From an uncultured Planctomycetales bacterium (GTDB lineage Bacteria; Omnitrophota; Gorgyraeia; Zapsychrales; JAHFFX01): 64,000 nucleotides of DNA. The notes beneath the pieces are model-generated. The model saw only the letters and a list, made by a program, of their open reading frames with translations. It did not search any database and was not told the origin of the DNA. The position numbers and the translations under genes are program-made. This document shows positions 1 to 32,771 of this stretch, one piece after another (position 1 is the first letter of the stretch; every line of letters begins with the position of its first letter). Location: assembly GCA_964612665.1 (NCBI GenBank), contig CAZTCI010000001.1, forward strand, positions 712,624 through 776,623, read 5' to 3'.

Positions 1-3000
1 TTTCCGCTTATAATATTCGCGTAGGCATTTGACTCTCCGGAGGCGGTTTTAATATTCGCAAGATCAGAAATTGTACCGCTTTTAATAACATTGTCCTTGG
101 CATCACGTATAGTAAGGTATTTCAGAGAGTCGTCTTTTCCATTAATCTCAAATGTATTAACAATCTTTTCACCCGAGGGCGCGAGATCGGTTCTGTTGAC
201 ATATAGTGGGAAGCTTGTTGATGCCTGATGATAGGTCTGATCGCCAAGATTAATGACAAGCGTTTGTCCATCGGATGATTTAACAACAGCCACTTGACCT
301 TTATCAGCTTCTGCGGTCATTGTTACTTGTGGATTTTGTAAACCTAAATTCTTTGCAAACGATTCAATGGTCTGTGGCGCGCCGTTCTCTTTATTTAAAA
401 GAACAATGGAGCCTTCTTTTAATTCCGCATCCTGTTTAAGTTCTCCGTTGATAACTGTACCGGGAATATACATGATCGCCGCGACTTTTTGTTGCGGCCC
501 CATATCAGCAGCCAATTCAGAGGGGTGGATAGGCTGGCCATTTTCGCCGATTAAAACTTTTTCAGCTTTGTCAATGTGTGTTTGATCAGGGTAGAAATGA
601 AGGACTTTAGGATTATCAACATCCGCCAATAAAACACCATTTTCACTGACGGGGCGATCTGGCAACATGGCAGATGCATGATTTCTATCGAGAAGCGGAG
701 CCAACTGTCCATTTTCATCTTTACCAATGGTGGCATGAACAATCATATCTTCAGGACTAATAACAGTGTCGCCCATCATGATGGTTGTTCCAGGCTTGAG
801 CTGCAGTCCCTTTAAATAAAATGAATCTCCATTTTGAGCAAAAACATCAATGGAACGATTGCTGCCATCTCTTTGATAACTTTTAACAACAACTCCTTCA
901 AGTTGGCGTCCATCGTCGGCGATGGCCATACTGGATCCTACAACTTTTCCATCATTACCAACATCATAAATCTTAGTGATCTGAACCGTCTGGACAGCTT
1001 CAGGTTGAGGTGATGGGTTCATACCGGTTAAGTCTTCTGACGTACTCGCCGTCTCGATGTTGACTGGTTTAGGCGCACCAATAAATTCTAAAGTTCTTAA
1101 AATCGGAACTCTTCCACCAGCTTGTTCAAAATGGGCACCAGGGCTTACCGCGGTCGAGTTTAAAATATTATTAGCATCCGTCACTGCAAAAGCAATGCGC
1201 TGCGCTCCGCCATTTACCGAAATTAAGGAATTGTTCGCTGAATCTACATTTTCAACAAACGTAAAATTATTTGGCTTTCCTGGAATGGGAACTTTCCCGC
1301 CAGCTTCGTTTTTATTTTCCTCTTTATTACTCGACATAAAATCTGGATTATAGACTGATCCTTTCGTACCATAGTATGCGTATTGCGGTAATAAATCTGC
1401 TTTAGTCCTGGCTGCGCTACTATACACATTATCAATTCCCGCAATCTGTAGAATGGCTGGGTGATTGCTAGCATCAAAGGTCTTTAAAATCCCTTTGGCT
1501 GTCGATTGTGCAGCGTCGGGAATAAGCGTGCTGGTTCCGTCTGTATTTCGAACAGAAAATTCTTTTCCTCCTTCTGTAACCGAAATGTTTCCCTTCACCT
1601 CTTTGCCTTGCCAATTAACTGAGGCTGTGCCTTCCCTCTTCCCCGTAAAATACGACCCCCAATTCCCATACAATCCCAATCCCCCGCCGGCGGTGACGAA
1701 AACAATGCCACCATTTTGATCAACAAAGACGTTACGATCTTTTGCAACAAGGGATAAAGTCGTTTTTCCGTCCGCGCTAAGAATGGCGTTAGAAGTACTA
1801 ATAGGCAGAGTTTTACCTTCATTAAGGTCGCCGGACTTAACAAATAAAACCGTTCCTGGGGTGCTCAGCGGCAATGGGAGTGTGCCTTGCAATGAGGGGT
1901 GGAACAAAATATTAAGATTAGGCGAAAGTGGCGCCCCGAATTGATTGATTAATTTTGTTGCAGCCGCACCATCCGACGGATTTGCCATCAATAAATCGAT
2001 GTTTCCTTTTCCTTTAAGTAAGATCGCATGTGTACCGCCTTCTACTGGGACCGCCCCACCACCGGACGATTCGCTGCCTTCTTGTGTCTCATCGATTTTA
2101 TGCTGACCTTTCAGAGTAATACCACTCGGCATATACAAGGACCCTTGGCCCAATAAGGTCAATTCTCCTTCTTTGCCAATTTTGACGCCAGTAAATTTTC
2201 CTTGTTCTTTTTGATTAAACCCTCGGGCAAACCCAAACCACCCGTTTATATCTAATCCTGAAAATTCTTCGGGTCCGACGGCTAATGGATTGTTTAAACT
2301 AATCACACCATTGTTTAAGACAACGCGTTTTGCATCAGAACTGGCAGCGCCGGCACCTGCTAAAATTTTATTCCCATCCCAAATGCCCGGCCCGGTGATC
2401 TTATACCCAATGATTCTTGAAATATCGGTTGCGAATTTACCATTTTTATTAAGATGTGCTCCATACCGATACGTTCCAATTTGTGAAAATGATGTCCATG
2501 GGATTGGATTTTCTTTAGATAGAACGGTCCCTGCCTTAAACGTAAAAACATTTGTTCCTCCAAAGGTCTCTCCTGGACTTAATACCGACAAGGAATGCCG
2601 TAAAAGTTGCACATCATGACCTGCGAATCCTTCACCAATGGTGATCTTTGCTCCATCTTCAATATTTCCGAAAAGATTAAGCAATGCACCGGCGAGAAAG
2701 GCGTATCTAAAATCTCCCTGAGCGATAAATCCAACATCCCAAATATTCCCTTTCTGGGATTTAATCGGTTGTAATTCAACATTTGACCCTGTGGCATCAA
2801 TTCCAACTTCCTGTGTCTGTGATTGTTTTTCTCCCTCACCGTAGAGGCCGCCTTCTTTTTTGTTGACGGTCTCTTGTTTTAAATTTTCTTCCAGGGTTAA
2901 GTGCCTGGTTGTGACATCGGCATCCGAAGAATAACCAGCAGCTTCACCTCGACGGGTCACACCTTCAAGACTGCTGGTACTGTTATTCGCCAGACTCAAT

Positions 3001-6000
3001 TCAGTTGGTTTTTCACCTTCAGCTAATTTTTCTAAATAAGGCTGCGCTGTAATCCGATCAATGTTACGATCAACGATTTCAGAACCATGGCCAAATAAAA
3101 TAGGAATACCTTTTTCACCGCTTGTTCCGCCAAAAATTTCGGCTTTGACTTTTTGTACAGGGACTGAATCTCCTTGTTCAAGTCCTATATGTGTCAACAC
3201 TGAGTTAGCTAACTCTTCGGGCGTTGATGATTCGATTGTCCCTTGAGCATTGTGAAAAATATCGTCGCCTTTTTCTGAAGCAACAAATTCACCTTTGCCG
3301 TTGTAATGTCCTGCAACATATGTATGGCCTGTCCAGCGTAAAACCGTTTTGTCCTGCGAATAATTCATAGCCATGGCCACTTTGGTCAAGGCAGCTTTAG
3401 TCTTATCTTCGATGACTTGGCCGTCCTTTTTAACTAACGTTTCCTTATTACCGCTGGTGTATATAACATTCACATTAGAAAAATAAATTCCGGGATCTAT
3501 ATCGGTTTTAAGAATATCTTTTCCTTCTTCCGATTTATCTTTTCTTAAGGTTATATATTTAATTCCCTTTTCACTTTTCAATTCCTCTTTTCGACCATAG
3601 AGTGGTTCTTTTAATGGGTTATAACCCCAATGTTGGTCGTCGATATATAGCTTACTACCATTCCCAAAAATAACTTCGCCGCCGGGAAGCTCCATAAAAT
3701 CCTCAGGCTTAGCCAAATTGATACTAAACAATTCAGGGGCGAGACTTCCAATCCCGGGAGCAAAATATCCAAACATTACCTCCATGGCCACATCTGGAAT
3801 TTTTCCTCCTTGTGAACCACCCATTGAACGAGCAAAGAAAAGAGAATTAGCTTCAGGGTTCTTATCTTCAGAGTCATAAACTAAAACAGGATTAAATGTA
3901 TAGCCCTCCAACTTGCCTCTATCATCGACCTTCAGTTCTAAAGTCGAACTCTTTTTTCCTCCAGAAGTTTCAGCTTCACCCGCTTTGGCATAACCTCCTA
4001 GCACTTTTTGATCATTAATAAATAAAGCTGAAAACATCTTGCCGGTAATATTGCTCTGTTTATTAATTTGTTCTGGACCCACTGTAGTCCCCAACCATTG
4101 GGTCGCAAGCCCTTCACCTGGAAAATTATTAGTTAGATTGAGAGTATTAAAAACATTTTCAGCTTCATCAGAATTTTTATCCGACTGTTCGAGCGCAACT
4201 TTCGTCGCATTTTTCGACTGAAGCGGTAGCCATGTTTCTTTGTTCCAGACTACATTGGTATTTCCATTTGGTTGGGGCATATAATAGAAAAATGTGCTGT
4301 CGAGAATGTTTTCTTTTTTACCATCTTCCTTTGTGACAGCAAGACCGCGATTCGATGTATTTTCCTGAAAATAAATTTTTCCATTAGAGTCGCCTTCTTG
4401 AGCTAGAAAAGATACGGTGGTATTAATGCCATCCCCTTGCGCAAAAAGTTTCGCCACGCCACTCGAAGTCAACGCCAGTCCAGCGGCTGCTGGAGACATC
4501 GCGGCATTGACAACTTTGGCTTCTTGAGGATTTTCTTCGCCGGGATTAATTTGACCAAAAATATTACGCAATGCCTTAACCTGCGCCAACGCTCCGGCCT
4601 GAGCAAAATAATTACCCGTCGCTATTAAACCGATTGTCTGCCCGCCGGGAAGAGAATAGCGGTCCACTGAAAAATCAAACTGCGGGCCTAAGTTATCGTT
4701 ATTAAATCCTATGGTTCTGTTGAAATGAATGTCGTGTGCCAGTTCCTCTGTTTTGTAAACCAATTTTTCAAAAGGTACCATTTCTGTTCCCGAAAGCATC
4801 CAATCATCCTTCACTTGAACATTAGCTGCTTCCTTCTCAGCGTCGGCGCGTGCAAGGCCCGCTTTATCCATTAAAAATTTAACTTTCGTTTCTTCTAAAG
4901 GCTCATTCGTACTTTGATTTAGAACCATTGTTACATATTGCGGGGTCGTCTGTCTCGCCTCGCCGATCATGCGCGTTAAATTTTGCACGCCTCCATTTTG
5001 CTGGCCGTTAATGTCAAAAACTTGTTGGGACAATAAAGATCGAGTGGACGAACCTTTGTAAGCAACAGTTAAAGCGTTCGTTGTTTGAGATTGACCTAGA
5101 AGCGCACCTAAAAATGGGCTGCCTAAAACGGGCAGGGCTTGAGTGTTCGCGGCTTTAAACCAAAAATTAAATTCTCCGCCGTTATTAATAATTGAACGGA
5201 TCAAATCGGGGCTGACTGTTCCTGTCAAAACAGGTGAGCTTCCCATAATCGACTGGACGGTTGGTATGATTCCTCCGTTATCTTTAAAAGGTTGTCCATC
5301 CGGACTAACAAGCACCGTTGGCAAGTTAACAAGGGCAGGACCAGAGGCAGAAATGCTCTGCAACTTATTAATCAATTTATCTAATTCTTTAGAAGATATT
5401 TTCTCGAGATCTTCAGGAGTGGCGTTATATTTTTGTTGCAATCGATTTAAGACAGCCTGTTTATCTGATCCTGATCCTGGTCGCAATTGAATTAACAGAC
5501 CCGCCAATTCTTTTGCCTGTGCCGGGCTCAAATAAACTTGCACACCGACCTTAGCTAAATCCATCCCCAACTTGGCAAAATCACCAGCATTGCCTGCTTT
5601 CCCATTAAATAAACTTAAATTCCAAACCTCGTTCCCATTTTTATCCTCGGCGACGTTCCCTAAAACATTTTTAGTCCCCAGCAAATATCTCAAACCAACT
5701 AAATTAACCGCCGTCATTTTACTTCCATCAGGACCGACGTTGGTCGCCCATGCCACGCGCCACTTTTTTCCGTCGTAACTAGGAATCCAACCGAGCCGGC
5801 GCGCGGTCATTCCCCATCGAGTTACGTCTATGAGCGGGGTCAAACCATATTCCAAAGCGGTCCTAACATTGGTGACATTGCCTGCGGGCAAACTGACATC
5901 TGTCAGATATTTCATCGGACCAGTACCGGGATTGATGACTGTAAAAAGTTGTTGAAGATATTCTTCTTGCAGTTTCTTTTTGGTGACAGGGGTGTCTGGT

Positions 6001-9000
6001 TGAAAGTTAGGAAGATCATAGGCGGATTTAATACGGACATACGGCATGTTGGGCCGACGATTGGATTCTTTAACGCTCTTCCAAATTTGATTTGCATTAT
6101 CGACAAACTGCAGATCAAATTGGCTCATGTGAACGAGCTGATCGACATAGCCAAGATAATTAACCAGTCCAGGAGTGTAGCCAGTCAAATTATATTCGGA
6201 TGTGTACTCGCCTTTTTCATCGGGGATAAATTTAGATCCGGTAAACCAGCCGCCGAGGGAATTCTGGGTAAAATTCATCCCGACAAAATTGCCGCCTAAA
6301 ATCTGAAATTGATTGACGGGCGCATAGAGAATCGTTTCTAAATTAGAGGCAGTGAAATCGCCTCCGTTAGTAAAGATCACATTATTATTGATGGGCGCTC
6401 GAAAATAATTAGAGTTACTTTCATCGACTGTCTTCCATTCAATCTTACTCACATCGACTGCCTCAGTATTGCCGGGCATATTAGCTTCGTCTCCCGTTGC
6501 CGTTGATGCGCCAACCGCGGCACCGCCTACAAACAAACCTGAAACCAGAAAAGCCAGTGCGCGGAATTCAGTCGGAGAAAGTTTAGAATGATACGGACTC
6601 ATGTGCGTGTCTTTCTTGTCAACGAGTTGCTTTTCAAGAAGACTCATAAAACCATAAATGGTTGCATTAACTGCGCCGGCCTTGAGCGCTTCCCAAACTT
6701 TATCACCCAGTTGAGCCGAGGGAATACCTCCGCTCCACACACCGTAAGCAAAGGCGCCGGTGGTGGAGCCGGCTTGCTGTAAAATCTGCGCCGCAGCACT
6801 GTCTGCTTTCAAACCGAAAGCACCGACGGCCGCGGCGGTAACAATAGCTCCGATACTCTGACTGGCTAAAAGTGGCAACTGAGTTTGAATAACAAGATAT
6901 AAAGCATCTGAAACAGATTCCGGAGCAAAATTTGGATTGCTATTATAGTTTTCCACAACAGATTGATGATAAGCGGCTGCTTTGATCGCTTGTTGTTCTT
7001 GCGGACTAAGAACTTTTCCATTGCTTTGGGCTTGAAGAGCATCTTGAGCATCTTGGTTGGCTTTATTGGCGAGCTCATGATTCTCCATGCCAAACTCCGC
7101 CCCGAATTTAGTGCCAGCATAATTATCTAAAAATGCAACTCCCCAAGTAAGGGCAACGTTGCTTGCAAAACTACTTAAGCCAGGAACCAAAAACTGTTTG
7201 AGAGATTTTGCGACTTCGCTGTTTTTATCGCCAAATATTTCATCGACGAGATTAAACACTCCAAACTCGACCAAACCTTTAACCTCACCAAGAACAAAAC
7301 CTTTAGCAAATTCTTTTCCAAAACCTGTTAAGACTTGACCAAGGGTCAAAGCAGGAAAAGATTTAGGCACGGCATAAGTTAAAACGCCATAACCATTCGG
7401 GATATTAGGGGGGGCTGTTTTCCGAACAAATGCTCCTCCTTCGGCAGTTAGCTTTTTTGCAGTAGCTTCACTCGTTTCAGATGCTACTTGGAACTGTTGA
7501 TCTTGCGTTGCGTCTTTAGCTAAATCCTTACTTAATGCTTGTTCCGATTGGTTACTTTGCTCTCCAGGATTCAAAGGCCCACCGCCAGGTTTGATCGTGT
7601 TCGCTGCTGCCGTCGTAGGAACATCCACCGGAGTCCAGGAACCGCCCCACAATTTAACTAATTTATCCATGGCCCAATTCAAAACTCTTACTAAAGGCGC
7701 ATAAACATACGCCGTCAATAAATTTTTAACCATCGTCCAGGCTGTTGCCAAACTCTTTCCAATTGACTGCAACATGCCGCTAAGAGTGACATTACCAACG
7801 CCAATGTTTCCTAGCGAAGTGATGCTGGTTTTGAGCATATCAGTTAACCAGTCCCCGAGTATACGGCGTGACAGGCTTTCCAAACCTGCTAAAAATCCTT
7901 GACTCGAGGCGGCTGCAGAGCTCAAGTTAACAGAATCAAGACTAGCGGCCCAATTCATTCCTGCCGACAACGCCGCACTCAACCCAACATTCAACAAAAA
8001 CCCAGTCGTCCCGTTACAAGCGCCTTTCATCTGGCAAATCGTGGTCAAAGTTTCCGCAAGCGCGGAGGCGCTCATCGCAATCACCCATGCCGCTTGAAAA
8101 GTTAAATTTGACCCAAAACCCATCATGCCAGCCACGTTTCCACCCACAGCCAGCATCGCCGTCTGCATCGCCACATTAATCGCAATGTCGCCCAAACTCA
8201 TTAAGCCCGGCAAATCTTTATAATGGCTGTGCCAAATAGATCCCCAAACAAAAGTCTGCATGGTCTCATCAACCGGCTCGTAAGCAATATTTTGTTTGTC
8301 CAAATCTTCCGCCAAAACAAAACCGGTTGATTGCTTAACAAAATCATCACGGCTCAGCATCATCGCATCGCCGGTGTCTGAAAAATAGACGTTCTTGTCA
8401 TCAATCTTGGTGATCATGACAAAATGCTCATTGCTGAAGTTAGCAATAAACGGAGGCTTAAGCGTTAGGATGTCTTGAGGATTTAGTTTCGCGGCCTGAG
8501 CTTTTAGGCCGTAGGCTTGCGCAACTTTGTTGATTGCAAAAAGAGAGGTTTTAAGTTTGGGTTGACCGGCTTCGATAACGTTGTTCGCAAAGTCAGCACT
8601 GAGTGTTAAAACAGAAATCTGTTCCAACGGTAAATTAATTTGATGCACATAAAGCCAATCGCGTAACGCATAGACACCGCAGTTTAATGGGTGAATATTA
8701 GGATCACGCAACCAATTGTCAATCCGTTGTATAGAATCGGAATTAAAAGATTTGGCTAACGTCAGATTGAGAGTGTACTTACTATTTTCGGATGCGCCTG
8801 TAATTGAATCAGGAATTCTTAACGCGACTTGCGTATTTTCTTGCTTGGGAAGCTGTTTTAAAAGATGTGTGAGCTCAATGGCAACTTTGGCTGTTGCAAC
8901 TGCTTGAGCTGAAAGCCCGCCATCTTCCGGGTCAACCGTGGTTTGAATATTGCGGGCGCTATTTGGATATAAAACATCAGGCCGATAGCTAAAAGACATT

Positions 9001-9236: not shown

Positions 9237-9344
9237 GAACCCAAAATTGCACTAGCCAAATTACAAAATTACGGGCGCAAAAAAGCAGATTTTGGGGAAT
9301 TCTGGAACTGAGCCAAAGGTTAAAGAATTTTTTTTAGGTAATAA

Positions 9345-9368
9345 AAAACCCCTTGAAAAAGGGGGATA
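9345..9368 (-). terminator. rho-independent terminator (CCCCTT-gaaaa-AAGGGG then T-run on the minus strand) between tadC and the giant gene
   Basis: aaaaaaccccttgaaaaagggggataaa on the plus strand; the reverse complement gives the stem followed by TTTTTTATTACC. Confidence 0.5.
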
Positions 9369-9921
9369 AATGTTCAAAGCTAGAGGCTCTTTCCAGCCGA
9401 ATCATCAAACGATCTTCACGTCGAAGAATCCCAAAGGATTTCTTCAAAATTGCTAGGATGAATGTAATTTTTTGGTTATTTGGGCGCACGTTTGACCGTT
9501 TATTCGGTTGTACTTTAACTTTGCATTAAAGTATAACATATAGTAGGCCTCCACTTCTTATTAGTCAAGTTTTTTTACGAATTTATCTTATTTATTTCTA
9601 GCAACTTATGCTTCTAATAAATTTCTTTTAAAAATCTTTTTGATAATTTTAGGGTTCACTCAGATCGCTCACATTCTCTTGAGTATTTGGGAAAGGTCAT
9701 TGATTTTTTCAAAATGTTAATTGTCATTCTCGACGAGAATTACAAAAATATTATGAAAATGCGTTAGACGGATAATTAACTTTTGTGGGAGCAGAATGGG
9801 TAACGAATGATAAAAAAATTGACAAAAAAGCAAGCGTTTCCTAAGTGGCCGGCATTTTAGGAGGCCACTTAACTTAAGATTAGAACAGAATGGACAATTT
9901 GCCTAGAGTGGACAATATACC

Positions 9922-11682: not shown

Positions 11683-11727
11683 AAATTTTTCTCTCGTCTT
11701 ACTTCGTTAATTGCTCACTAAACACGC

Positions 11728-12048: not shown

Positions 12049-12084
12049 ATAAAGTGCGTTCTAAAACTAACTAAAATTTAATTG

Positions 12085-22698: not shown

Positions 22699-22907
22699 GT
22701 AGAGAACATAGATAAAGTAGATATAAAATATCTACAGTATTTGATACATATTTTTTTGATATTTGGGCGCATGTTTTTGTGTCTTTGATCAGACGATGAA
22801 AAACATATAATGTAAGACGGTACAAATATACCATGTGCCCTTGAACGCTGTCAAGGGAAAGAGTTTAAAAAATTCGACATATTAACAAATTAAAACACCC
22901 TTTCACA

Positions 22908-24794: not shown

Positions 24795-25064
24795 ATGTCC
24801 AAATGTCCTTATTGTTTTGAAGAACTCCCAGGCAATTTTCTGGAAAAATTTTCAAAAAAAAATTCCCCAGAAGCGCCGCAATGTCCACATTGTTCACAAT
24901 TTATTATTGATCCACTGGTTAACGTTGATTATCCCGGCGTGGATAAAAAGAAGTGCCTTTACTGCGGAATGTTGATTTTAACAGAAGCACGTTTTTGTCG
25001 TTTCTGTCAGAAATGGCTTGATGAATTGGATGCGGCGGCGGATGATGCAGAAAATTTGGAATAA
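24795..25064 (+). CDS. double zinc-ribbon protein (89 aa)
   Basis: CPYC…CPHC and CLYC…CRFC pairs; acidic C-terminus. Confidence 0.5.
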   Translation: MSKCPYCFEELPGNFLEKFSKKNSPEAPQCPHCSQFIIDPLVNVDYPGVDKKKCLYCGMLILTEARFCRFCQKWLDELDAAADDAENLE

Positions 25065-25075: not shown

Positions 25076-25426
25076 TTAAGCAGCTAGAATTTGAATAGAA
25101 TCGCCTAATTCAGTTTTGGATTTTGAAATAGTTTTAACAGGAAGTTCAATCGCGCGGTTGGCTTTTAAAAAAATAGGGCTGAGCCGAAATGGTTGTATCT
25201 CCTCGAGTAATCCCACCACTTTTCCAGAGTTATCGATAAAAATAACATCAATAGCAAATCGCATAAACAACATGTGAATTGACTGACAATGAGTAATGAT
25301 CAGCCCTTCTCCGTCGACGATAGATTGTCGGTTTAATAAACCAACCATACGGGTTCTGAAAGTATCCGCGAGGACTGCGCGGTCAGCAATAATTATTTTG
25401 CGGGTGGAATTAAATACGGTAAGCAA
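25076..25426 (-). CDS. DUF192 (COG1430) domain protein
   Basis: …ADTFRTRMVGLLNR…GEGLIITHCQSIHMLFMRFAIDVIFIDNSGKVVGL…AIELPVK matches DUF192 core. Confidence 0.6.
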   Translation of the reverse strand: MLTVFNSTRKIIIADRAVLADTFRTRMVGLLNRQSIVDGEGLIITHCQSIHMLFMRFAIDVIFIDNSGKVVGLLEEIQPFRLSPIFLKANRAIELPVKTISKSKTELGDSIQILAA

Positions 25427-25434: not shown

Positions 25435-27603
25435 TTATGGTGTAAAAATGTTTTTATCCAAAGCGATGCCTTTAGAAGAAAAATCTTCGTAACATTTGGG
25501 AACATAACCTGTGGTTTTATAGTCACCTAGAATTTTCCCGTCGCTGTCTGTTCCTAGACGTTCAAAAATAAAAATGTCGCGTAAATCCAACTGGTGTGTC
25601 TTCTGATCAACGCCGGCCACTTCGGTTATGCCGGTTATTTTTCTTGAACCATCTGAAAAACGGTTGACTTGAACGATGATGTCGATGGCTGAGCCGATCA
25701 TTTCATACATGGCGCTTAAGGGAAGTTCAACGCCCGTTAAAAGCATCATGGCCGTTAAACGAACCAAAACATCGCGTGTGGTATTGGCGTGGATTGTCGT
25801 CAAGGAACCATCGTGACCTGTGTTCATAGCCTGCAACATATCTAATACTTCTGCGCCGCGGCACTCACCAATGACAATCCTATCAGGACGCATACGAAGC
25901 GTATTCACAAACAAATCACGAATAGAAACAGCGCCTTTTCCTTCAATGTTCGCCGGGCGTGCTTCCAACCGGCCCCAATGACTGTACGGTTTAAGCCGCA
26001 ATTCGGCGGCGTCTTCTATGGTGATAATGCGTTCTCCGTCGGGAACAAAAAGGGAAATAATGTTAAGCAATGTTGTTTTACCGGCGCCTGTACCGCCGGA
26101 AACAATAATGTTACTTCTTCCCAAAACTGCGGCATGAAGAAAATCAGCCATCGGCTGAGACAAACTCTTAAAGCGATGGATCAAATCGTCAATCGTATAA
26201 CGTTCTTGGCTGAATTTACGGATCGTGACCATTGGTCCATTTAAAGATAACGGACGAATAATAGCATTAATACGAGACCCGTCGGGCAAACGCGCATCAA
26301 CCATCGGTGTCGACTCATCAATACGCCGGCCCAAGGGCGCAACAATACGGTCAATAACCGAACGAACCTGTTGTTCGGAAATAAACCGCCGATTGGTTAA
26401 AATTAATTTCCCATGTTTTTCAATGTAGATCTCATCCTTCTTATTAACCATGATATCGGTGACGTCTGAATCTGCCAAAAACTCTTCGATAGGACCAAGC
26501 CCTAGCGTTTCGTTTACAATTTCTTTAACCAGCCGGGTTCGCTCTTCATGGGAAGAAATGATAGCGCCCGCTTCCTCGGCGAGAATATTGCTGACAATTT
26601 TTTCAGTTGTCTCACGGATTTTCTGAAACTGCTGCGGGTTCGCCAAGGCTTCCGGAGTCAGGTCTTTTAAATCCATCTTGCCTAACAACTTTTCATGGGT
26701 CTTCTTTTTAAGCCGAACGACTTCGTCTTCTTCGTTAACATTGTAAATTTTATCTTTCCCTTTTTCCTGTACGCCTTGAGCAATGCCAAATTTTTCCCAA
26801 AACTCACCCGGCTTACCTAAATCTTCTGTTGTTCTTAATTTAGCTATGTCGGTCGCCTGCACAAAAAGTCCAGGCGCATTTAAATCGTTGACCATCTTAT
26901 TAAAAGCCGCCGCGACTTTGCTGCGCGGACTATCAACGACACAGGGAACGCCGCGGTTTAAAGCCATTCCAACCGCTTTTCCGTCGGAAGGAATTTGGGC
27001 AAAAATTTCGCAAGCCAAGGCCGCCTTAACTTCCTGCCAGGCAACCCCGCCATAACTTTCAGCACGGTTTAAAATTAACCTGACCATTTTGAGAGGGAAA
27101 TGCAGGCTCTGTAAAACTTCTAAGGCCGTTCGGATTTGATAAACAGCCAGAATATCTGGTGTCGCAATAAGAAAAATTAGATTGGAATAATCTAAAATGG
27201 TGATCAGCGTCTCGCTAAAGGCCTTACCGCCGTCGATAATAATGTAATCGTAAAGCTGGCCAACTTTTTTAAGAAAGGGTTTAATATTGTCAGGTGTAAT
27301 GTGACCAACTTGGCGGACGTGCGTGACGGCGGGGAGAAAATCAAATCCAGCAGAATGCGCCACAACATATCTTTTAATAATCGTGGGGTCGTTGTCTTTT
27401 TCTATTTCAGCCAAAAGATCAACGATAGCTAGACGGGGGGACAAATTGAGCATCCGGGCCATATCCTGAGCGGCCTGGAAGTCCATGTCCAAAAGCAAAA
27501 CCTTGTGGCCGCTCAACGCCAATGCCGTCGAGAGATTGACACACACAAAAGTTTTGCCAACCCCACCTTTATTACTAAAAACTGCTACGCTTTTTGCAGG
27601 CAT
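25435..27603 (-). CDS. tadZ-tadA: fused TadZ/CpaE-like ParA-family ATPase (N-term, about 260 aa) + TadA/CpaF secretion ATPase (C-term); 722 aa
   Basis: N-term deviant Walker A VFSNKGGVGKT (MinD/ParA/CpaE). C-term SGGTGAGKTTLLN…ITIEDAAEL…TGHDGSLTTIHANT (VirB11/CpaF family). One uninterrupted ORF. Confidence 0.8.
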   Translation of the reverse strand: MPAKSVAVFSNKGGVGKTFVCVNLSTALALSGHKVLLLDMDFQAAQDMARMLNLSPRLAIVDLLAEIEKDNDPTIIKRYVVAHSAGFDFLPAVTHVRQVGHITPDNIKPFLKKVGQLYDYIIIDGGKAFSETLITILDYSNLIFLIATPDILAVYQIRTALEVLQSLHFPLKMVRLILNRAESYGGVAWQEVKAALACEIFAQIPSDGKAVGMALNRGVPCVVDSPRSKVAAAFNKMVNDLNAPGLFVQATDIAKLRTTEDLGKPGEFWEKFGIAQGVQEKGKDKIYNVNEEDEVVRLKKKTHEKLLGKMDLKDLTPEALANPQQFQKIRETTEKIVSNILAEEAGAIISSHEERTRLVKEIVNETLGLGPIEEFLADSDVTDIMVNKKDEIYIEKHGKLILTNRRFISEQQVRSVIDRIVAPLGRRIDESTPMVDARLPDGSRINAIIRPLSLNGPMVTIRKFSQERYTIDDLIHRFKSLSQPMADFLHAAVLGRSNIIVSGGTGAGKTTLLNIISLFVPDGERIITIEDAAELRLKPYSHWGRLEARPANIEGKGAVSIRDLFVNTLRMRPDRIVIGECRGAEVLDMLQAMNTGHDGSLTTIHANTTRDVLVRLTAMMLLTGVELPLSAMYEMIGSAIDIIVQVNRFSDGSRKITGITEVAGVDQKTHQLDLRDIFIFERLGTDSDGKILGDYKTTGYVPKCYEDFSSKGIALDKNIFTP

Positions 27604-27607
27604 TTTT

Positions 27608-29827
27608 TTATTTTTGCAAACTAAAAACGATTGGTATTGTTAAATCCAATTCTTGGAGGTTAGTATCCGCAGGAAACGCGGTGTAAGGGGCCAGGCTTTT
27701 GGCGGTTGTAAGAGCAGCTTCATCGAAGATGTCGTGGCCAGAGGACTCTTTTACAGCAGCATAAGCTAAAGTCCCATCGCTTAAAATATGCAGCATCAAT
27801 TTTACGGTGCCTTCCCAATTGTATTGCCTTGCCTCGTCGGGATAATTGATGGCACTAGCGATTTTTTGTTGGACGGCGGCAGCGTAATTTTGACTTGATG
27901 AACTCTTAGCAGCCGCCGGTTTTGAAACTTTCTGACTATAAACAATAGGAACGTTCAACACCAAATCATCTAAATTTAATTTCAAAGGAAACGCGTCATA
28001 AGGTGAAAGAACTTGTGCCGTATGAAGCGCATCTTTATCAAAAATATTGTATCCTGAGGATTCTTTAATTTGTGAATCAGCTAATGAACCATTTTTTAAA
28101 AGATGTAAGCTCAATGTAACCGTTCCCTCCCAGCCTTTTTCTTTAGCTTCCGGCGGGTAGGTGATAGCCTTAGAAATTTTTTCTTGGATTGTTTTTGAAT
28201 AAGCGTCGATCAGGTCCTTTTGTTCAGCATTATTTCCGGATGCCCCTGCTTGTTCTCCTGAAGATTGATCTGTCGCTTCGGCGGTGGCATCTTGAAGCGG
28301 TATGGCATCAGCATTTTCAGACATTGAGCTTTGTGTTGGCATTCTCGACGGAGGGACTGATGTTTCAGATGTCATTGATGAATCTGATGACGACACTGAA
28401 GCGGCGTCGGATGTGGAAGATTCCGTTGTCTTAGCAGCAGGCGGAGGAACCTCTTTCGTTTTTTGCCGAAGAATCGTAGGCGTTACGGAAATAATTAACT
28501 CAGTGTCTTGATTGTTAGACGAAGGCGTTTTACGGGATCGGAAAACCGCACCCACAATAGGAATATCGCCCAGGAAAGGAACCTTGCGGACTGTTTCTCC
28601 CTCAACATGCTTAATCAAGCCAGCCAGAATAATCGTCTGCTGGTCGTCTAAAAGCAGCTGCGTTTGTGCCGTGCGGGTAGCAAAGGCAGGAACTTGCCCG
28701 ACGGAATGCGTTGGATCAACTTCGCTGACCTCGGTATTCATGACGACATTGACTTTATCCTGTTGGATTGTGGGGGTGATCGTTAGACTGATACCAAAAT
28801 CTTTAAACTCAACATTAGTCTGCACATTACCACCAACGGTCGTAGATGTCGTACTGATTGGAACCTGTCCTCCGACGAGAAAACTGGCCTCCTTACCGCT
28901 TTTGACGACCAATTTAGGTTTTGAAAGGACCCGGCCTTTTCCTTCTTCGACGACTGCATTAATAACGGCAGAAACAGATGTTGTTCGTCTAAGTTTGGCT
29001 ACTTTAAAAATGCTGTCTGCAAAAGGAATAGAACTTTGTGCTGTGCTGTCGACAAGCCCTTTTCCAGGCAACCCCTCGGTAATATTAATTTGATCAACCC
29101 AGTCTAAGCCGATGCTTTTGGATGCGGTGGCATTTAACTCGGCGAGCTGAACATCAACCTGAACCAAGTCGTTGCTGATATCTTCACGCAAAAGATTAAT
29201 CACATTGGTCATGTAAGGATGAATAATAGCGTCGGCCTCGGCTTTCTTTTGTTCACTTAAATTACCCGAAGCCACGACCTTACCTTCGTAAAGGTTCACT
29301 TCAAGATTAACTCCGTCGATCTTGGCGACTTTGAAAAGTTCTTCCAGCCGGGTTTTTAAAATATTTAAATCCTCGGCGTAAACACGGATCATTATTGTCC
29401 GCTTGCCATATTGGTCCCACACAAATAAAGCTGATTGTCCTGGTTTCTTGGCCAGCAAGAGGATTTCATCATTGGTGACATTCGCGATGTCCGCAATGTC
29501 AGGATCACTTACAGAAACACGCACTAATGAATAGGCTTTAATCGGAGTGAGTTCTCCTTTAAGCATGTGAACTTCGTCTTGATGTAGGATGTCAGGAGGA
29601 AGGTCTTTGGAGTCTTGCTTAGCATCTTGTTTCGTATCTTGGCTGGCGGTCTTGTCCTCGCCAAAAATTTCTTTCGGAGCAATCCATAGAGTTTCCATTA
29701 AAATGAAACCCATCAAAACAACCCACGCACAGCTCTTATTGATTTTTTTATCAAAAGCTCGGTGATTTAGGCTAGATCTCTTTTCCTCGACGGAATAAAA
29801 ATCTATAAGCTGTTTTTTATTTTTCAT
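27608..29827 (-). CDS. cpaC: Flp pilus secretin CpaC/RcpA-like with two C-terminal TonB C-terminal (TonB_C) domains; 739 aa
   Basis: Secretin core …VRKVPFLGDIPIVGAVFRS…ELIISVTPTIL. Two repeats at the C-terminus, YPPEAKEKGWEGTVTLSLHLLKNGSL…ESSGYNIFDKDAL and YPDEARQYNWEGTVKLMLHILSDGTL…ESSGHDIFDEAAL, each fit the TonB_C signature. Confidence 0.75.
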   Translation of the reverse strand: MKNKKQLIDFYSVEEKRSSLNHRAFDKKINKSCAWVVLMGFILMETLWIAPKEIFGEDKTASQDTKQDAKQDSKDLPPDILHQDEVHMLKGELTPIKAYSLVRVSVSDPDIADIANVTNDEILLLAKKPGQSALFVWDQYGKRTIMIRVYAEDLNILKTRLEELFKVAKIDGVNLEVNLYEGKVVASGNLSEQKKAEADAIIHPYMTNVINLLREDISNDLVQVDVQLAELNATASKSIGLDWVDQINITEGLPGKGLVDSTAQSSIPFADSIFKVAKLRRTTSVSAVINAVVEEGKGRVLSKPKLVVKSGKEASFLVGGQVPISTTSTTVGGNVQTNVEFKDFGISLTITPTIQQDKVNVVMNTEVSEVDPTHSVGQVPAFATRTAQTQLLLDDQQTIILAGLIKHVEGETVRKVPFLGDIPIVGAVFRSRKTPSSNNQDTELIISVTPTILRQKTKEVPPPAAKTTESSTSDAASVSSSDSSMTSETSVPPSRMPTQSSMSENADAIPLQDATAEATDQSSGEQAGASGNNAEQKDLIDAYSKTIQEKISKAITYPPEAKEKGWEGTVTLSLHLLKNGSLADSQIKESSGYNIFDKDALHTAQVLSPYDAFPLKLNLDDLVLNVPIVYSQKVSKPAAAKSSSSQNYAAAVQQKIASAINYPDEARQYNWEGTVKLMLHILSDGTLAYAAVKESSGHDIFDEAALTTAKSLAPYTAFPADTNLQELDLTIPIVFSLQK

Positions 29828-29852: not shown

Positions 29853-30650
29853 TTATAATTCCCGGCCCCCGCGAAATATTTGAATAACCGGCTTAGCTTC
29901 TTCAGCGGCTGGTTCGAATGAACTGGTTTTCGCCTTTGTCCCGCCAAGTTCAGTACCTTGTCTTTCCAAAACATAGTCCGCGAGCGTTTGCCAATTATAA
30001 GGAGGTACCATAAATGATTCTGTTTCGGAAGGAGAACGTAACGCCAACTGGAGCTTACCATTTTGCTGAACAAAACTCAGCAGCCCTGCTTCTTCTGGAT
30101 CCAGCGCAAAAGTCACAGTCAAATCCTTGGTCTGCTGCTGGGCTTCATAAACACCAGGAGAATTCACATTCGTCCCGACAGCTAAGACTTGAACGTTTTG
30201 AAAAATCATGGCTGTAATTGTTTGGGCTGGTTGATATCCGACTTGCTGAGAACCGGGAGGTGTCATCTGCGCGAGAATGTCGACGAAATCGCCGGGATTG
30301 ATTAAACCACCGACGGCGGCGAGAGAATCAATTCGAACAGTGACGGCTCTCTTGCCCGCAGGTGTTTTGACAGCTAATGATGATTGGGGAATAATGGCAG
30401 CCGGCCCTTTTTCGGCGGCGGCTTTTTGCGCGGCAGCAATTGCCTGTTGGCGCACAGTGCCTAATTCTGTTTTTAATGCGGTGATTTCTTCTTTGAGGGG
30501 TTCAACATTTTTTTGAATTTCTTGAGAGGCAACTTCTTCTTTTTTAGTGATTTCACTTTGAATATAATTTCCGGCTCCGATGGCGGCGATTAATCCTATG
30601 GTCAACGCGATCACAATGATAACAATCGTTCTTCGCTGTTCATTGGTCAT
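29853..30650 (-). CDS. cpaB: Flp pilus assembly protein CpaB/RcpC (SAF domain)
   Basis: N-terminal TM, coiled region, …AVTVRIDSLAAVGGLINPGDFVDILA… typical of CpaB. Confidence 0.7.
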   Translation of the reverse strand: MTNEQRRTIVIIVIALTIGLIAAIGAGNYIQSEITKKEEVASQEIQKNVEPLKEEITALKTELGTVRQQAIAAAQKAAAEKGPAAIIPQSSLAVKTPAGKRAVTVRIDSLAAVGGLINPGDFVDILAQMTPPGSQQVGYQPAQTITAMIFQNVQVLAVGTNVNSPGVYEAQQQTKDLTVTFALDPEEAGLLSFVQQNGKLQLALRSPSETESFMVPPYNWQTLADYVLERQGTELGGTKAKTSSFEPAAEEAKPVIQIFRGGREL

Positions 30651-31633
30651 AACTTGACTCCTTCTAAAAGGGATTCATTACGTGTGACTGGTTTCTTTTG
30701 TTCCAGTTCTTTAAGATAACTTTCAACGGTTTGCTGCTGTTTAATTTGGAGCAATCCGTTTTTAATATCGTTTTTCACGTCGAGGAAACCTAATTGTTTC
30801 CCGCCCTTTTTCTCCTCAAGTTTTACAATCGAGTACCCTTCCGATCCTTTAAAAACCGCGCTGACATCACCGACTTCCAAATTCAAAACCGCCGCGGCCG
30901 TGGCTTGATCTAAATCAGCTCCCTTAATTAAACCTAAATCTCCGCCTTTAGCCGCTGTTTTTCCTTTGGAACGTGCTTGGGCAGTTTGCGCAAAGTCTGC
31001 GCCTTTTAAAACATCAACCAGAATATCTTTCGCCTCGGGTTGAGTAGGAACAACGATCGCGCGCAAATGATATTCGGCCGGCTCAACAAACATATTTTTG
31101 TTTTGGTTAAAATAATCTTGGACTTCGTTGTCCGTGACGGTGACACTTGTGATCAAATTATTAACATTTTCTCGGACAAGAAGCGTCCGACGGAATTCGC
31201 TAACCGCATCTTGGATTTCTTTTTTATTTCCCAAACCTTTTTCTTCAGCATCCATGACCATCAACTGCTGCCTGACCAATTCATCTAATACGAGCTTCTT
31301 GGATTCGGGTTTCTTTATGTCAAAATCAGGCACGACGTCTTTTAAATTCTTAAGCCGGTCTTTAAATTCATCGACTGTGATTGACCAGCTGCCGACACTT
31401 GCCAGGACATCGGCTTGCGTGTTTAAAGCCGCAGCTGCGCTGGCTTGGTCTTTAATTTTTTCCGTCGAGGTTTTAACCGGCGGTGGTTGAACTGCTTTGT
31501 CTTCGCTTGTGCTGGCTGTTGTTTTTTTGTTTTTGTTAAAAATTGATTCGATCGTTGAAGAAATTTGATCACAGCCAGCAATAGTTAAACAAAATAAGGC
31601 GGCCGCGACAATAAAAATTCTATCTTTTTTCAT
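30647..31633 (-). CDS. lipoprotein peptidyl-prolyl isomerase (SurA/PrsA-like, parvulin-type)
   Basis: lipobox LTIAGC; SurA-N-like region and rotamase segment …GGDLGLIKGADLD…GYSIVKLEE. Confidence 0.6.
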   Translation of the reverse strand: MKKDRIFIVAAALFCLTIAGCDQISSTIESIFNKNKKTTASTSEDKAVQPPPVKTSTEKIKDQASAAAALNTQADVLASVGSWSITVDEFKDRLKNLKDVVPDFDIKKPESKKLVLDELVRQQLMVMDAEEKGLGNKKEIQDAVSEFRRTLLVRENVNNLITSVTVTDNEVQDYFNQNKNMFVEPAEYHLRAIVVPTQPEAKDILVDVLKGADFAQTAQARSKGKTAAKGGDLGLIKGADLDQATAAAVLNLEVGDVSAVFKGSEGYSIVKLEEKKGGKQLGFLDVKNDIKNGLLQIKQQQTVESYLKELEQKKPVTRNESLLEGVKL

Positions 31634-31724: not shown

Positions 31725-32771
31725 TTAACAGGGTGGCCCGCCGCCTCCTGCTCCCTTAGGACATCCATGGCAGTCAAAATTTTTATTTCTAAAACCCTGA
31801 TTAAATCGTTGATCGCAATTAAAATTAGTAGCTGGATTATTCCAATCCGTTGACCAGACAGGACAGCTTTTTCCCCTAATAATACAATTTGCCGGTCCTA
31901 GACCTCCAGCAGGAGGAACGTTGGAACACTTTACAGTACCTATTACCGTGTCACTCGAACTTGGAAAACAAGAAGTCCCTTCCTGAAAATATATTTCCCC
32001 CGTAGCTGTATTGTTGGCAACGCAACCCCAATTGCTTCCGCCCGACATATTAACATCACAACCCGCAATAAATGGGCATTCTGGAGGACATCGAAGGGCT
32101 GGATTTACATCGGTGCCTTGGCAATCCCCGTTAACATTTGTAAGTGGTATATTACATTCCGGCGGCTGGCATCTTTGCAATTGAGGATCAAAGGGGTAAG
32201 CTCCGTCGCACACCGCTTCGCATTTGGCACCTGTACAATTAGCGACGGGGATCCACGGCGTTGGCGAGGGAACATTCTGGTCTGAGCCAGTGCAAATCGT
32301 TGCATGGTCAGGAATTGAACCGGTGCATCCAGCCGGACAGATAGGATCAGGAACACAATTTTTGGGCTGAAGATTATTGCCGCATTGAATTAGTGTGCTT
32401 TGTCCCGTCGGACAGCCGCCGCTCGCTCCGCACAATTTCGTACAGCAGGTATCATCAACAATACAACTGGTTTCCTGAGGTTCACAATCAAGAGGCGTGC
32501 AATTTTTTTGATACAGCTTTTCCGTCGGTTTACACGATCCCAATCCGCAGCCAATCGGTTCTTTCGGGCATTTACATGTGGGCGCCGGAAAATCAAAGCC
32601 TCCTTTTATCATTGGGTCGGTGTAAGAATCGTCGGCAACATCTTCCCACATTTTAAGATGGGCATTGACCGAGCGAATAACATACGGCCCCATGACAACA
32701 ATCCCAACCATGACCAAAACCATAACCGTAAGATATTCAAGCGTTGATTGGGCTTCTTTGGATAGGCGCAT
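31725..32771 (-). CDS. large Flp-motif pilin-like cysteine-rich protein (348 aa)
   Basis: MRLSKEAQSTLEYLTVMVLVMVGIVVMG (A/QSTL-EY + helix); rest has >40 Cys in CxxC/CPxxC patterns. Confidence 0.6.
   Translation of the reverse strand: MRLSKEAQSTLEYLTVMVLVMVGIVVMGPYVIRSVNAHLKMWEDVADDSYTDPMIKGGFDFPAPTCKCPKEPIGCGLGSCKPTEKLYQKNCTPLDCEPQETSCIVDDTCCTKLCGASGGCPTGQSTLIQCGNNLQPKNCVPDPICPAGCTGSIPDHATICTGSDQNVPSPTPWIPVANCTGAKCEAVCDGAYPFDPQLQRCQPPECNIPLTNVNGDCQGTDVNPALRCPPECPFIAGCDVNMSGGSNWGCVANNTATGEIYFQEGTSCFPSSSDTVIGTVKCSNVPPAGGLGPANCIIRGKSCPVWSTDWNNPATNFNCDQRFNQGFRNKNFDCHGCPKGAGGGGPPC

Follow-up and report, generated by a model that had tools for sequence, protein, structure and literature searches.

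An Omnitrophota Tad-type pilus locus adjoining the gene of a giant C39-peptidase protein, with a proposed role in attachment to host or prey cells

Close to the replication-origin genes of an uncultured bacterium of the phylum Omnitrophota (assembly GCA_964612665.1, deposited as an uncultured Planctomycetales bacterium) lies a long cluster of genes for a pilus machine of the Tad class, followed by the gene of a giant protein with a C39 peptidase domain. The cluster was analysed within a stretch of 64,000 nucleotides (contig CAZTCI010000001.1, positions 712,624 to 776,623; hereafter the window), where positions 3-32771 form a nearly continuous series of minus-strand open reading frames (ORFs). 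A preliminary description, drawn up from the letters of this DNA, had presented it as an atypical and possibly undescribed Tad/Flp-like pilus or surface-appendage locus lying entirely on the minus strand. Nearly all of its domain calls are upheld by hidden Markov model (HMM) scans (RcpC, secretin, TonB_C, ATPase, T2SSF, peptidyl-prolyl isomerase and C39), and the Tad/Flp-like class is borne out by Caulobacter CpaF as the best structural match of the motor, by RcpA among the matches of the secretin, by two half-size T2SSF proteins and by pilins with a G/xxxxEY motif. The run of minus-strand ORFs is nearly unbroken, the exception being a zinc-ribbon gene on the plus strand at 24795-25064. The observation is real, but it does not disclose a new class of system: the type of locus was already reported by West-Roberts et al. 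2023 (bioRxiv 10.1101/2023.11.21.568195) and the Tad complex by Seymour et al. 2023 (PMC10066038), so that the locus cannot be called undescribed.

Domain assignments are Pfam matches above the curated cut-offs unless marked as weaker, obtained by scanning the ORFs of the window of at least 100 amino acids (aa). Two sets of relatives were compared. The first consists of 80 genome loci with CpaF relatives from many phyla (L001-L080), among which L001-L003 are the closest, two of them labelled Omnitrophota and one Planctomycetales. The second was obtained from a TadC scan of metagenome contigs, which gave 80 loci at 44-82% identity in which all window proteins were compared by tblastn; for upstream genes the counts cover 26 loci whose sequence reaches 9 kb or more upstream of TadC, and for downstream genes 16 loci with 7 kb or more. 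The core of the machine and its associated foldase are encoded by the following genes:

30647-31633, minus strand: PrsA/SurA-like peptidyl-prolyl isomerase (PPIase) lipoprotein (Rotamase_2, 2.4e-18; SurA_N_3 just below the cut-off; lipobox IAGC with Asp at +2).
29853-30650, minus strand: RcpC/CpaB periplasmic alignment protein with an N-terminal transmembrane helix (PF16976 RcpC, 6e-26).
27608-29827, minus strand: Tad-type secretin (CpaC/RcpA-like) of 739 aa (Secretin, 7e-42; TonB_C, 4.8e-33, in two stretches; T2SS-T3SS_pil_N, 6.3e-11).
25435-27603, minus strand: fused ATPase of 722 aa in one ORF (AAA_31/ParA at aa 4-241 and T2SSE at aa 368-644, both Pfam).
10819-11682, minus strand: TadB-like platform protein of 287 aa with one T2SSF domain (PF00482, 1.1e-17), found in 26/26 loci.
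9922-10806, minus strand: TadC-like platform protein of 294 aa with one T2SSF domain (PF00482, 1.5e-13), at 58-69% identity in most related loci.

Judged by the TXSScan/MacSyFinder definition of Tad systems (Denise et al. 2019), the Tad-class core is complete within the window apart from the peptidase, and the two T2SSF proteins, the CpaB protein and the secretin named in the preliminary description all score above the Pfam cut-offs at the predicted ORFs. The N-terminal part of the ATPase is of the ParA/MinD type (TadZ/CpaE-like), with a deviant Walker A motif (KGGVGKT) and without the N-terminal receiver-like domain; AAA_31, ParA and CbiA all match it over aa 4-241. Its C-terminal part (aa ~327-722) is a CpaF/TadA motor with a second Walker A motif, GGTGAGKT, at aa 503, and the T2SSE match reaches an E value of 1.6e-55. 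Among the NCBIfam models the TadA family TIGR03819 matches at 9.4e-96 (321 bits against a cut-off of 373) and MinD at 8.7e-26. In the PDB, Caulobacter CpaF heads the matches (4e-107, 362 bits), followed by archaeal GspE-like/FlaI proteins at 122-128 bits. Judged by these alignments, the C-terminal part is a CpaF orthologue. The presence of both ATPases in one polypeptide, which had been listed among the non-canonical traits, is confirmed as a single 722-aa ORF, but the trait is nothing special: ParA and CpaF share an ORF in 61 of the 80 genome loci, in Bdellovibrionota, Firmicutes, Actinomycetota, Chloroflexota, Acidobacteriota and others, so the fusion is widespread.

The secretin is the least conventional part of this core. 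It consists of a pilus N-domain, the secretin domain proper (28466-28954), a linker of 83 aa rich in Ser, Thr, Pro and Glu (28217-28465) and two TonB_C domains (27926-28216 and 27611-27889), in agreement with the two domains originally recognised. Its best PDB matches are 8jvb and the Pseudomonas Tad secretin RcpA (8odn). The combination of Secretin and TonB_C recurs in 120/120 of the best secretin homologues, and those with a taxonomic name are all Omnitrophota. Most of these homologues have ~550 aa and about 20 of the 120 (roughly 640-780 aa) come close in length to the window secretin, which suggests that the long forms carry two TonB_C domains and the short ones a single copy. Outside this group the arrangement is rare, as among the 80 genome loci TonB_C stands on the secretin itself only in L001-L003. 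The fusion is Omnitrophota-typical and the norm among the Omnitrophota homologues sampled; no description of it was found in the literature searched. In NCBI annotation the Omnitrophota Tad secretins are usually called 'TonB family protein' (P0022, P0026, P0032 and P0037, for example) because of the C-terminal TonB_C domain. Such a label can hide a secretin in automated surveys, and secretins mislabelled in this manner may be the source of the two flanking 'TonB-domain' genes listed in a 2026 preprint, where no link to a secretin is made.

As the preliminary description had remarked, some customary Tad genes are not visible: the scanned ORFs of the window include no A24 prepilin peptidase (TadV/CpaA), no TadD-like tetratricopeptide repeat (TPR) pilotin or lipoprotein and no RcpB-like protein. 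A tadV gene can be a 'loner', and a peptidase encoded elsewhere is normal for Tad systems (Denise 2019). A TPR protein is present in the related locus L003. Of the 80 genome loci, L001 and L002 alone have an orthologue of the PPIase, in the corresponding place, and the gene is Omnitrophota-typical as well; its recognition as an embedded lipoprotein is sustained by the Rotamase_2 match and the lipobox. By sequence comparison PPIase, RcpC, the secretin-TonB_C fusion and the fused ATPase are kept in L001 in the same context near the origin.

In nine proteins of the locus a motif and transmembrane scan detected the Flp/class-III motif [G/A]-Q-x-x-x-E-Y and, after it, a hydrophobic helix. Matches of these pilins to Flp_Fap and Class_IIIsignal are weak; Class_IIIsignal passes its cut-off for g09, and Flp_Fap stays below. 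The pilins of the array (g08-g14) and g20 are the following (a slash marks the predicted cut):

22420-22584, minus strand: g08, Flp pilin of 54 aa (KKG/QSLIEY; Flp_Fap 6e-6, below the cut-off).
22193-22390, minus strand: g09, Flp/class-III pilin of 65 aa (KRG/QSTLEY; Class_IIIsignal 1.2e-5, above the cut-off).
21783-22139, minus strand: g10, pilin of 118 aa (KKG/QNTAEY; motif and orthologues).
21401-21724, minus strand: g11, pilin of 107 aa (MKG/QSTLEY; motif and orthologues).
20837-21226, minus strand: g12, pilin of 129 aa (KLG/QATSEY; sequence and orthologues).
20424-20837, minus strand: g13, pilin of 137 aa with a long leader (KTA/QSMMEY at aa 31; motif and orthologues).
20073-20387, minus strand: g14, pilin of 104 aa (RKG/QSTIEY; motif and orthologues).
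11728-12048, minus strand: g20, pilin of 106 aa with 6 Cys (NKA/VSTMEY), always directly before TadB and present in 26/26 loci.

The figure of at least nine Flp-motif pilins given in the preliminary description stands, although its qualification of all of them as elongated does not, since two (54 and 65 aa) have the ordinary Flp size. The neighbourhood comparison that it had proposed recovered a fixed gene order in the related loci: g08-g09-g10-g11-g12-g13-g14, g15, g17, g18/g19, g20, TadB, TadC and the C39 giant ORF, the latter adjacent to TadC in 13/16 loci. Among the 26 loci TadB and g20 were found in 26, the other pilins in 16-26, g15, g18 and g19 in 20 each, g17 in 19 and an Avd-like gene in 0. 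The pilin order from g08 through g14 to g20 is complete in 11 loci, and the partial loci agree with it. Because this order is reproduced across loci, the seven pilins represent distinct orthologue groups rather than recent duplicates, and an ordered array of seven pilin paralogues is Omnitrophota-typical. The pilin g08, first in the array and the best conserved (mean identity to its orthologues of 57.5%), is for these reasons the candidate major pilin.

A second set of proteins combines pilin-like N-termini with much larger bodies, or is rich in cysteine:

31725-32771, minus strand: g01, pilin-like protein of 348 aa (KEA/QSTLEY and a hydrophobic helix) with a C-terminal domain containing 34 Cys.
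18734-20119, minus strand: g15, pilin-like protein of 461 aa (KA/QTSTEL and a helix) with a large beta-rich head and 10 Cys.
17849-18118, minus strand: g17, pseudopilin-like protein of ~89 aa (EKA/QVTLEF and a helix), with orthologues in 19/26 loci.
14826-17657, minus strand: g18, protein of 943 aa (NNG/QVALILILL) with three hydrophobic segments and 39 Cys, TadG-like by position.
12344-14797, minus strand: g19, secreted protein of 817 aa with its own Sec signal peptide (SKAFA/DSS) and 58 Cys, lacking a pilin N-terminus.

Pilin-like N-termini are thus also carried by the 461-, ~89- and 943-aa proteins (AQTSTEL, AQVTLEF and GQVALIL, respectively). The start of g17 is likely the ATG at 18118 and not that at 18235. 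The protein g15 has been modelled with an alignment (AlphaFold 2, pLDDT 82.9, pTM 0.78) as a helix at residues 6-75 plus a beta domain, which found no significant PDB fold match in the searches run. Its 63 homologues carry no Pfam domain, and the named ones all belong to Omnitrophica; it occurs in 20/26 related loci. As a candidate for a minor pilin or a subunit of the tip, g15 resembles TadE/F in its position only. No Pfam or NCBIfam match was obtained for g01, which is missing between mdh and the PPIase gene in L001; L105 and L137 contain related Cys-rich modules, placed elsewhere. It is likely an adhesin-bearing minor pilin, and its place at the head of the locus is peculiar to this genome.

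Regarding g18 and g19, the description of three giant Cys-rich secreted proteins holds for the counts (34, 39 and 58 Cys in 348, 943 and 817 aa), but the 943-aa and 817-aa products turn out to correspond to a single split gene. In 32/33 related loci a single ORF covers both the g18 region and the conserved last ~300 aa of g19; the 1587-aa ORF of L092, for instance, aligns with g18 aa 10-869 and g19 aa 385-815. An independent Logan assembly shows the same division. On comparative grounds g18 and g19 are one gene divided locally, in which g19 has gained a signal peptide and a new Cys-rich N-terminal half, either by natural gene fission or as a pseudogene in the making. The g18 family is large (369 clusters at 50% identity, without organism names and typically of 1000-1700 aa), and no Pfam domain was detected in the eight members scanned. 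The g18 N-terminus is homologous to an 800-aa protein of L003 (2e-13), itself with a weak match to the Tad family PF13400 (0.028). A likeness of g19 to this L003 protein through a YAWK...R(V/I)DG motif was discarded (BLAST E 0.078, not significant). Large Cys-rich pilin-like proteins are typical of the Omnitrophota.

Downstream of the platform genes, 686 nucleotides after TadC, begins the giant gene:

3-9236, minus strand: N-terminal 3078 aa of the giant protein, with Peptidase_C39 (stop-free frame of 3083 codons at 3-9251, ATG at 9236).

The ORF runs off the start of the window and extends in L081, identical over the 3078 aa, to at least 3894 aa, where it is still incomplete; the giant protein of more than 3000 aa with a C39-like domain is in this way confirmed. 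Its N-terminus is predicted to be cytoplasmic, followed within the first ~80 aa by a signal-anchor transmembrane segment (hydropathy peak at aa 64-82 from the ATG at 9236); there are further hydrophobic segments. Since the positive-inside rule makes this an N-in signal anchor, the C39 domain would lie in the periplasm. PF03412 matches at aa 222-308 (45 bits against a cut-off of 22), and the candidate catalytic residues are Cys186, His271 and Asp287, of which the His and the Asp align with the peptidase of PCAT1. The Pfam and PDB alignments stop short of the Cys region; the motifs HPLNCG (containing Cys186), EHFV and D-x-G are invariant in 29/29 homologues, which speaks in favour of an active peptidase. 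An Asn at -6 apparently takes the place of the oxyanion Gln. The C39 peptidases of bacteriocin ABC exporters (PCAT1, 7n87/4ry2) share the PF03412 family, the His and Asp motifs and the invariant upstream N-C-G, whereas the window domain comes without an ABC transporter, is predicted to be periplasmic after a signal anchor and opens a giant protein. A Gly-Gly cleavage site after the anchor was considered, but it is present only in this genome. The C39 domain was likewise discarded as the pilin-processing enzyme, for the pilins have Lys or Arg and not Gly at -2, and prepilins are cleaved at the cytoplasmic face, away from the predicted periplasmic site of this domain. Beyond residue ~470 the protein is poorly conserved and non-repetitive, with 3 Cys in 3,078 aa, no internal repeats and no Pfam domain besides C39; only aa ~1-450 are conserved, the first ~430-470 residues showing 33-45% identity in related loci, and a homologue search with the giant retrieved two proteins, covering 10% of the query. 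In a 2026 preprint PF03412 defines the largest architecture cluster among Omnitrophota long proteins. Locus L140 contains at 11007-14846 a complete C39-anchored ORF of just 1,279 aa in the giant-gene position; the giant-gene family is therefore not always giant.

It could be argued that the giant gene and the Tad genes are mere neighbours, that is, two independent envelope systems in a conserved block near the origin. The locus lies indeed ~10 kb from the dnaA/dnaN/gyrBA set in a region whose order is kept in L001, no C39 ORF follows TadC in 3/16 loci, other genes intervene in some, and the interval between TadC and the giant holds a hairpin (9364-9349) and a site that resemble a terminator and a promoter, respectively, and may mean separate transcripts. 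Promoter and terminator scans, however, gave overall no more than chance (37 found against 35.3 expected, and 27 against 19.0). The C39 ORF follows TadC in 13/16 loci, in most passing the 10-kb flank (at least 2,800-3,190 aa), at TadC identities of 45-69% and while the body of the giant diverges beyond recognition; mere synteny is unlikely because this adjacency persists despite such high divergence. West-Roberts 2023 and the 2026 preprint arrived independently at the same association; in the latter, secretion or pilus genes flank 13/14 giants. A simple coincidence of neighbours is accordingly very improbable.

A different question is whether the machine builds a long pilus at all. It could be a Tad-derived exporter resembling the type II secretion system (T2SS), forming a short periplasmic pseudopilus instead of a long adhesive pilus and pushing disulfide-rich proteins through the secretin. 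The secretin is the sole outer-membrane conduit encoded in the locus; the conserved PrsA/SurA-like foldase speaks for a need of secretion rather than for a plain pilus, and a periplasmic folding step is plausible as in T2SS, with which the locus also shares a T2SSE-family ATPase, a T2SSF-family platform and several pilins or pseudopilins. The pilins, in at least seven separate orthologue groups of fixed order, are reminiscent of the several pseudopilins with which a T2SS is equipped. The substrates would be g19, which is Sec-dependent, Cys-rich and devoid of a pilin N-terminus, possibly the ectodomains of g01, g15 and g18, and/or pieces of the giant released by its C39 peptidase, apparently periplasmic and, to judge from its motifs, catalytically intact. 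West-Roberts 2023 took the locus as T2SS-like. Membership in T2SS proper can be rejected: the motor is of the CpaF and not of the GspE type (gspE 39 bits against a cut-off of 630, as opposed to the 362 bits of CpaF), gspD scores 155 against 351, GspC, GspL and GspM were not found by Pfam scans of the window ORFs, and the platform consists of two single-domain proteins and not of one GspF. Against an exporter of this kind stands also that the conserved domain of g19 belongs to the anchored pilin-like g18 protein in 32/33 relatives, and that a protein of at least 3,900 aa is an implausible secretin substrate unless cleaved. To our knowledge, no Tad system has been established as a general protein exporter. 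On balance, an exporter with such substrates is possible but doubtful. A bolder version, in which an independently evolved, Tad-derived secretion and surface-assembly system would deliver Cys-rich proteins and C39-processed giant segments by means of a multi-pilin pseudopilus, a TonB_C-tethered secretin and the foldase, we regard as unlikely. If true, it would amount to a second, convergent invention of 'type II-like' secretion, specialised for the giant proteins of predatory nanobacteria.

The preferred reading, to which we would give a probability of roughly 0.6, is that the locus encodes the Omnitrophota version of the Tad (type IVc) pilus machine, genetically linked with a giant envelope protein anchored in the membrane, for attachment to the host or prey; in other words, a Tad-type machine probably used for grabbing other cells. 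A prepilin peptidase encoded elsewhere would cut the pilins after the Gly or Ala ahead of Q-x-x-x-E-Y, and the CpaF motor, kept in place by the ParA domain fused to it, would polymerise a filament through RcpC and the secretin. This filament would consist mainly of the small first pilin (g08, 54 aa), with the larger paralogues and g01, g15, g17 and g18/g19 in minor or tip positions, where they would bind the surface of the host or prey. The PrsA-like lipoprotein could fold the exported pilin-like and Cys-rich proteins, and the TonB_C domains may tether or stabilise the secretin in the periplasm, substituting for the missing TadD and RcpB. A bifunctional CpaF would then retract the filament and draw the nanobacterium onto its target, where the giant protein, possibly self-processed by its C39 domain, might provide tight adhesion or degrade the surface. 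The model of g15, with a pilin-like long helix and a globular head, counts in favour of a pilus, and the variability of the Cys-rich modules and of the giant body fits surfaces that are expected to contact a host. In the passage of Seymour 2023 that cites Kizina 2022, the Tad complex is stated to be expressed in 'Ca. Velamenicoccus archaeovorus' LiM with Methanosaeta, and peptides of the giant ORF to be 3-fold enriched in attached cells.

Several points weigh against this attachment pilus. Filament, adhesion and retraction are predictions, and the pilus is a proposal made from genes. Pilin processing is assumed, no prepilin peptidase being encoded in the 64-kb window. The role given to the TonB_C domains is pure conjecture. 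Neither TadE nor Tad of Pfam matches the window proteins or the 63 homologues of g15 and eight of g18, the sole hit being the one at E 0.028 in the L003 orthologue, so that g15, g17 and g18 are assigned to TadE/F/G through N-terminal motifs and gene position. The expression evidence comes second-hand, through the citing paper. Lastly, seven ordered pilin paralogues, a periplasmic foldase and a periplasmic peptidase fit pseudopilus secretion equally well.

The best matches of the ATPase are metagenome-assembled genomes (MAGs) of Candidatus Omnitrophota at 65% and 50% identity (in one-genome-per-species contigs), and a MAG labelled 'uncultured Planctomycetales' reaches 62%; Bdellovibrionota, Firmicutes, Chloroflexota and others follow at ~40%, and the nearest matches outside the Omnitrophota include Bdellovibrionales, Pseudobdellovibrionaceae and Oligoflexia. 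Tad-like systems of Bdellovibrio and similar organisms, and the Kil system of Myxococcus, share with the locus the Tad-class core, multiple flp genes and a proposed role in prey contact, and single-ORF ParA-CpaF fusions occur in Bdellovibrionales loci too. On the other hand, none of the fetched loci from outside the Omnitrophota has a TonB_C-fused secretin, and BLAST detected in them neither a PPIase nor a Cys-rich pilin-like protein nor an adjoining giant C39 gene. Kil is a Tad-like killing system, and a contact-dependent machine that immobilises and lyses prey can be envisaged here as well; the Cys-rich proteins, or else the giant, would then be its toxins or lytic effectors. Such a machine would agree with the phylogenies of Seymour 2023, in which Velamenicoccia RcpA groups with the predatory Stigmatella, Vulgatibacter and Lysobacter and TadB/C with Bdellovibrionales, and with the cell-wall-degrading role proposed for the giant proteins by West-Roberts 2023 and the 2026 preprint. 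In L003, moreover, the segment between the ATPase and DUF192 genes (4545-10644) holds the 800-aa g18 orthologue, a 1,050-aa protein with two PIG-L domains and a glycoside hydrolase family 3 domain and a 176-aa TPR protein; the second fits a cell-wall attack, and the third may be TadD-like. Against lytic killing, Pfam and NCBIfam find no lytic or toxin domain in any locus protein of the window, and the likeness is drawn from remarks on phylogeny in the literature. Killing as the function is thus quite unlikely; it overlaps with the attachment pilus and differs from it in emphasis only.

Compared with the canonical Tad loci (tad of Aggregatibacter, cpa of Caulobacter, rcp/tad of Pseudomonas), the window locus has in common CpaF/TadA, a TadZ/CpaE-type ParA, TadB plus TadC, RcpC/CpaB, RcpA/CpaC and the Flp G/xxxxEY signature. 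It departs from them in the TadZ fused to CpaF without the receiver-like domain, in the secretin with TonB_C, in nine Flp-type pilins where the canonical loci have one to three, and in pseudopilins that are far larger, Cys-rich and missed by the TadE and TadG HMMs. Its tadB/C genes lie ~14 kb from tadA, with pilin genes in between; TadV, TadD and RcpB are absent from the locus, while a PPIase, DUF192, a zinc-ribbon gene, a helix-turn-helix protein and a giant C39 protein are embedded in it. The earlier statement that this combination fits no known Tad subtype is therefore right with respect to the textbook loci, but the combination does match the locus reported from Omnitrophota. West-Roberts 2023 described a locus that is conserved across the phylum and stands upstream of the giant genes. 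Its subunits number over 10, among them homologues of gspD/E/F, rcpC, a Rotamase_2 PPIase and numerous small genes with a class-III signal; C39 domains lie close to the N-termini of the giant proteins, and pilZ and genes for sugar uptake are predicted further downstream. Seymour 2023 named the system the Tad complex and found TadBC/RcpA in 74/116 Velamenicoccia species. Phylum, parts list and a giant C39 gene directly downstream are the same in the window, and the Tad complex of LiM (CP019384.1, 12382-29832) lies near the chromosome start, as the window locus lies near oriC. The locus type itself has in this sense a prior description; its fusions are another matter, since these accounts are brief and, in their accessible portions, make no mention of the secretin-TonB_C or ParA-CpaF fusions, the order of seven pilins or the large Cys-rich families. 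The window locus goes beyond the published type in its two TonB_C copies, the split g18/g19, g01 at the head and the Avd-like insertion. To the published picture this analysis adds that a TonB_C secretin is the rule among the Omnitrophota homologues sampled, that the pilins fall into orthologue groups of set order, that two families of pilin-like proteins are restricted to the lineage, that the C39 triad does not vary, that g18 and g19 stem from a split gene and that the Avd-like gene is an insertion.

The remaining genes and elements of the locus are accessory, inserted or of possible regulatory nature:

25076-25426, minus strand: DUF192 (COG1430) protein (PF02643, 8.6e-18).
24795-25064, plus strand: double zinc-ribbon protein of 89 aa, divergent from g07 (DZR and Zn_Ribbon, both just below the cut-off).
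22908-24572, minus strand: g07, cytoplasmic protein of 554 aa with an N-terminal helix-turn-helix (HTH) and no transmembrane segment (weak HTH matches).
22674-22857, minus strand: leader of the pilin array, with a promoter-like TTGACA-18-TATATT with TG (22854-22825) and two inverted repeats.
18150-18662, minus strand: g16, four-helix-bundle protein (23S rRNA IVP/Avd-like) between g15 and g17 (PF05635, 3.8e-11; TIGR02436, 2.6e-9).
12078-12129 (upstream of g20) and 17648-17699 (upstream of g18), minus strand: direct repeat of 52 nucleotides, 90% identical.

DUF192 genes are found in 31/80 genome loci with CpaF relatives from many phyla, and their vicinity to Tad genes has also been noticed in Firmicutes (PMC12786226). 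DUF192 is accordingly a recurrent, uncharacterised and widespread Tad accessory gene. The zinc-ribbon gene keeps its position and orientation in L001 and L114, at 44-46% identity. The HTH matches of g07 are weak (IS630 HTH at 0.0067, and HTH_32), its L114 orthologue matching HTH_Tnp_Tc3_2 at 8e-5. Homologues of g07 exist in L090/091, L114, L133, L140 and L152, and in L001 and L114 they stand at the matching place; PDB searches gave no sequence matches, and a single-sequence AlphaFold 2 model (pLDDT 35) was unusable. The protein g07 is a candidate regulator, kept in this sub-clade. The promoter-like site at 22854-22825 is the best one ahead of the pilin array. The inverted repeats, CCCTTGA...TCAAGGG, occur twice in the window against 0.00 expected, one over the -35 box (22838-22857) and one as a perfect 12-bp stem with a T run (22674-22699), and neither sequence comparison nor a search for repeats recovered them in related loci. 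They could serve as paired operators or as an attenuator, possibly for g07 next to them. The 52-nucleotide element, with only its two copies in the window (0.00 expected), is a candidate shared internal promoter or operator.

The Avd-like gene g16 deserves separate comment. The domain call of the preliminary description is correct, but the gene is not part of the system; it is incidental because 0/26 related loci carry one, and is an insertion peculiar to this genome. A diversity-generating retroelement was considered and rejected on the same count, together with the lack of a reverse transcriptase among the ORFs scanned and of a template/variable repeat pair; the direct repeats of the window are the 5' ends of the pilin genes and the 52-nucleotide intergenic element only.

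The origin gene set lies on the other side of the locus head:

43040-44386, minus strand: dnaA, after which come dnaN, DciA, gyrB and gyrA.
36533-46700, both strands: origin neighbourhood, with gyrA, gyrB, DciA, dnaN and dnaA on the minus strand and yidC, parA and parB on the plus strand.

L001 shares the order gyrB-gyrA-CN hydrolase-mdh-PPIase-RcpC-secretin-ATPase-DUF192. The GC content falls to 31% at 42-46 kb, and the GC skew flips sign near 44 kb. A MazE/MazF (PemK) toxin-antitoxin pair (33938-34503, minus strand) is inserted between the CN-hydrolase and malate dehydrogenase genes, and is missing from the otherwise syntenic L001. A 6S/SsrS RNA matches at 58384-58545 (plus strand; 60.2 bits against a gathering score of 46.4), between pheT and a gene for an MgsA-type AAA+ protein, and an Rfam scan of the locus yielded no riboswitch and no other RNA. 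With regard to the search for further loci, TadC (58-69% identity in most of them) is far better kept than the pilin-like proteins (25-45%) or the body of the giant (not alignable), and is a handy marker for finding them.

The Omnitrophota are abundant, uncultured and ultra-small bacteria, thought to be predators or parasites, and have some of the largest genes known. The Avd-like gene and the supposed peculiarity of the ATPase fusion, two false leads, drop out of the description of their pilus locus, and two large pilin-like families restricted to the phylum are recognised, one of them with a confidently modelled head domain for which the searches gave no match among solved structures. The gene-by-gene list of parts, with a candidate major pilin and a fixed set of seven pilin groups, makes the system approachable by experiment, and the locus is the best genetic handle on the attachment to targets and the deployment of giant proteins in the Omnitrophota.

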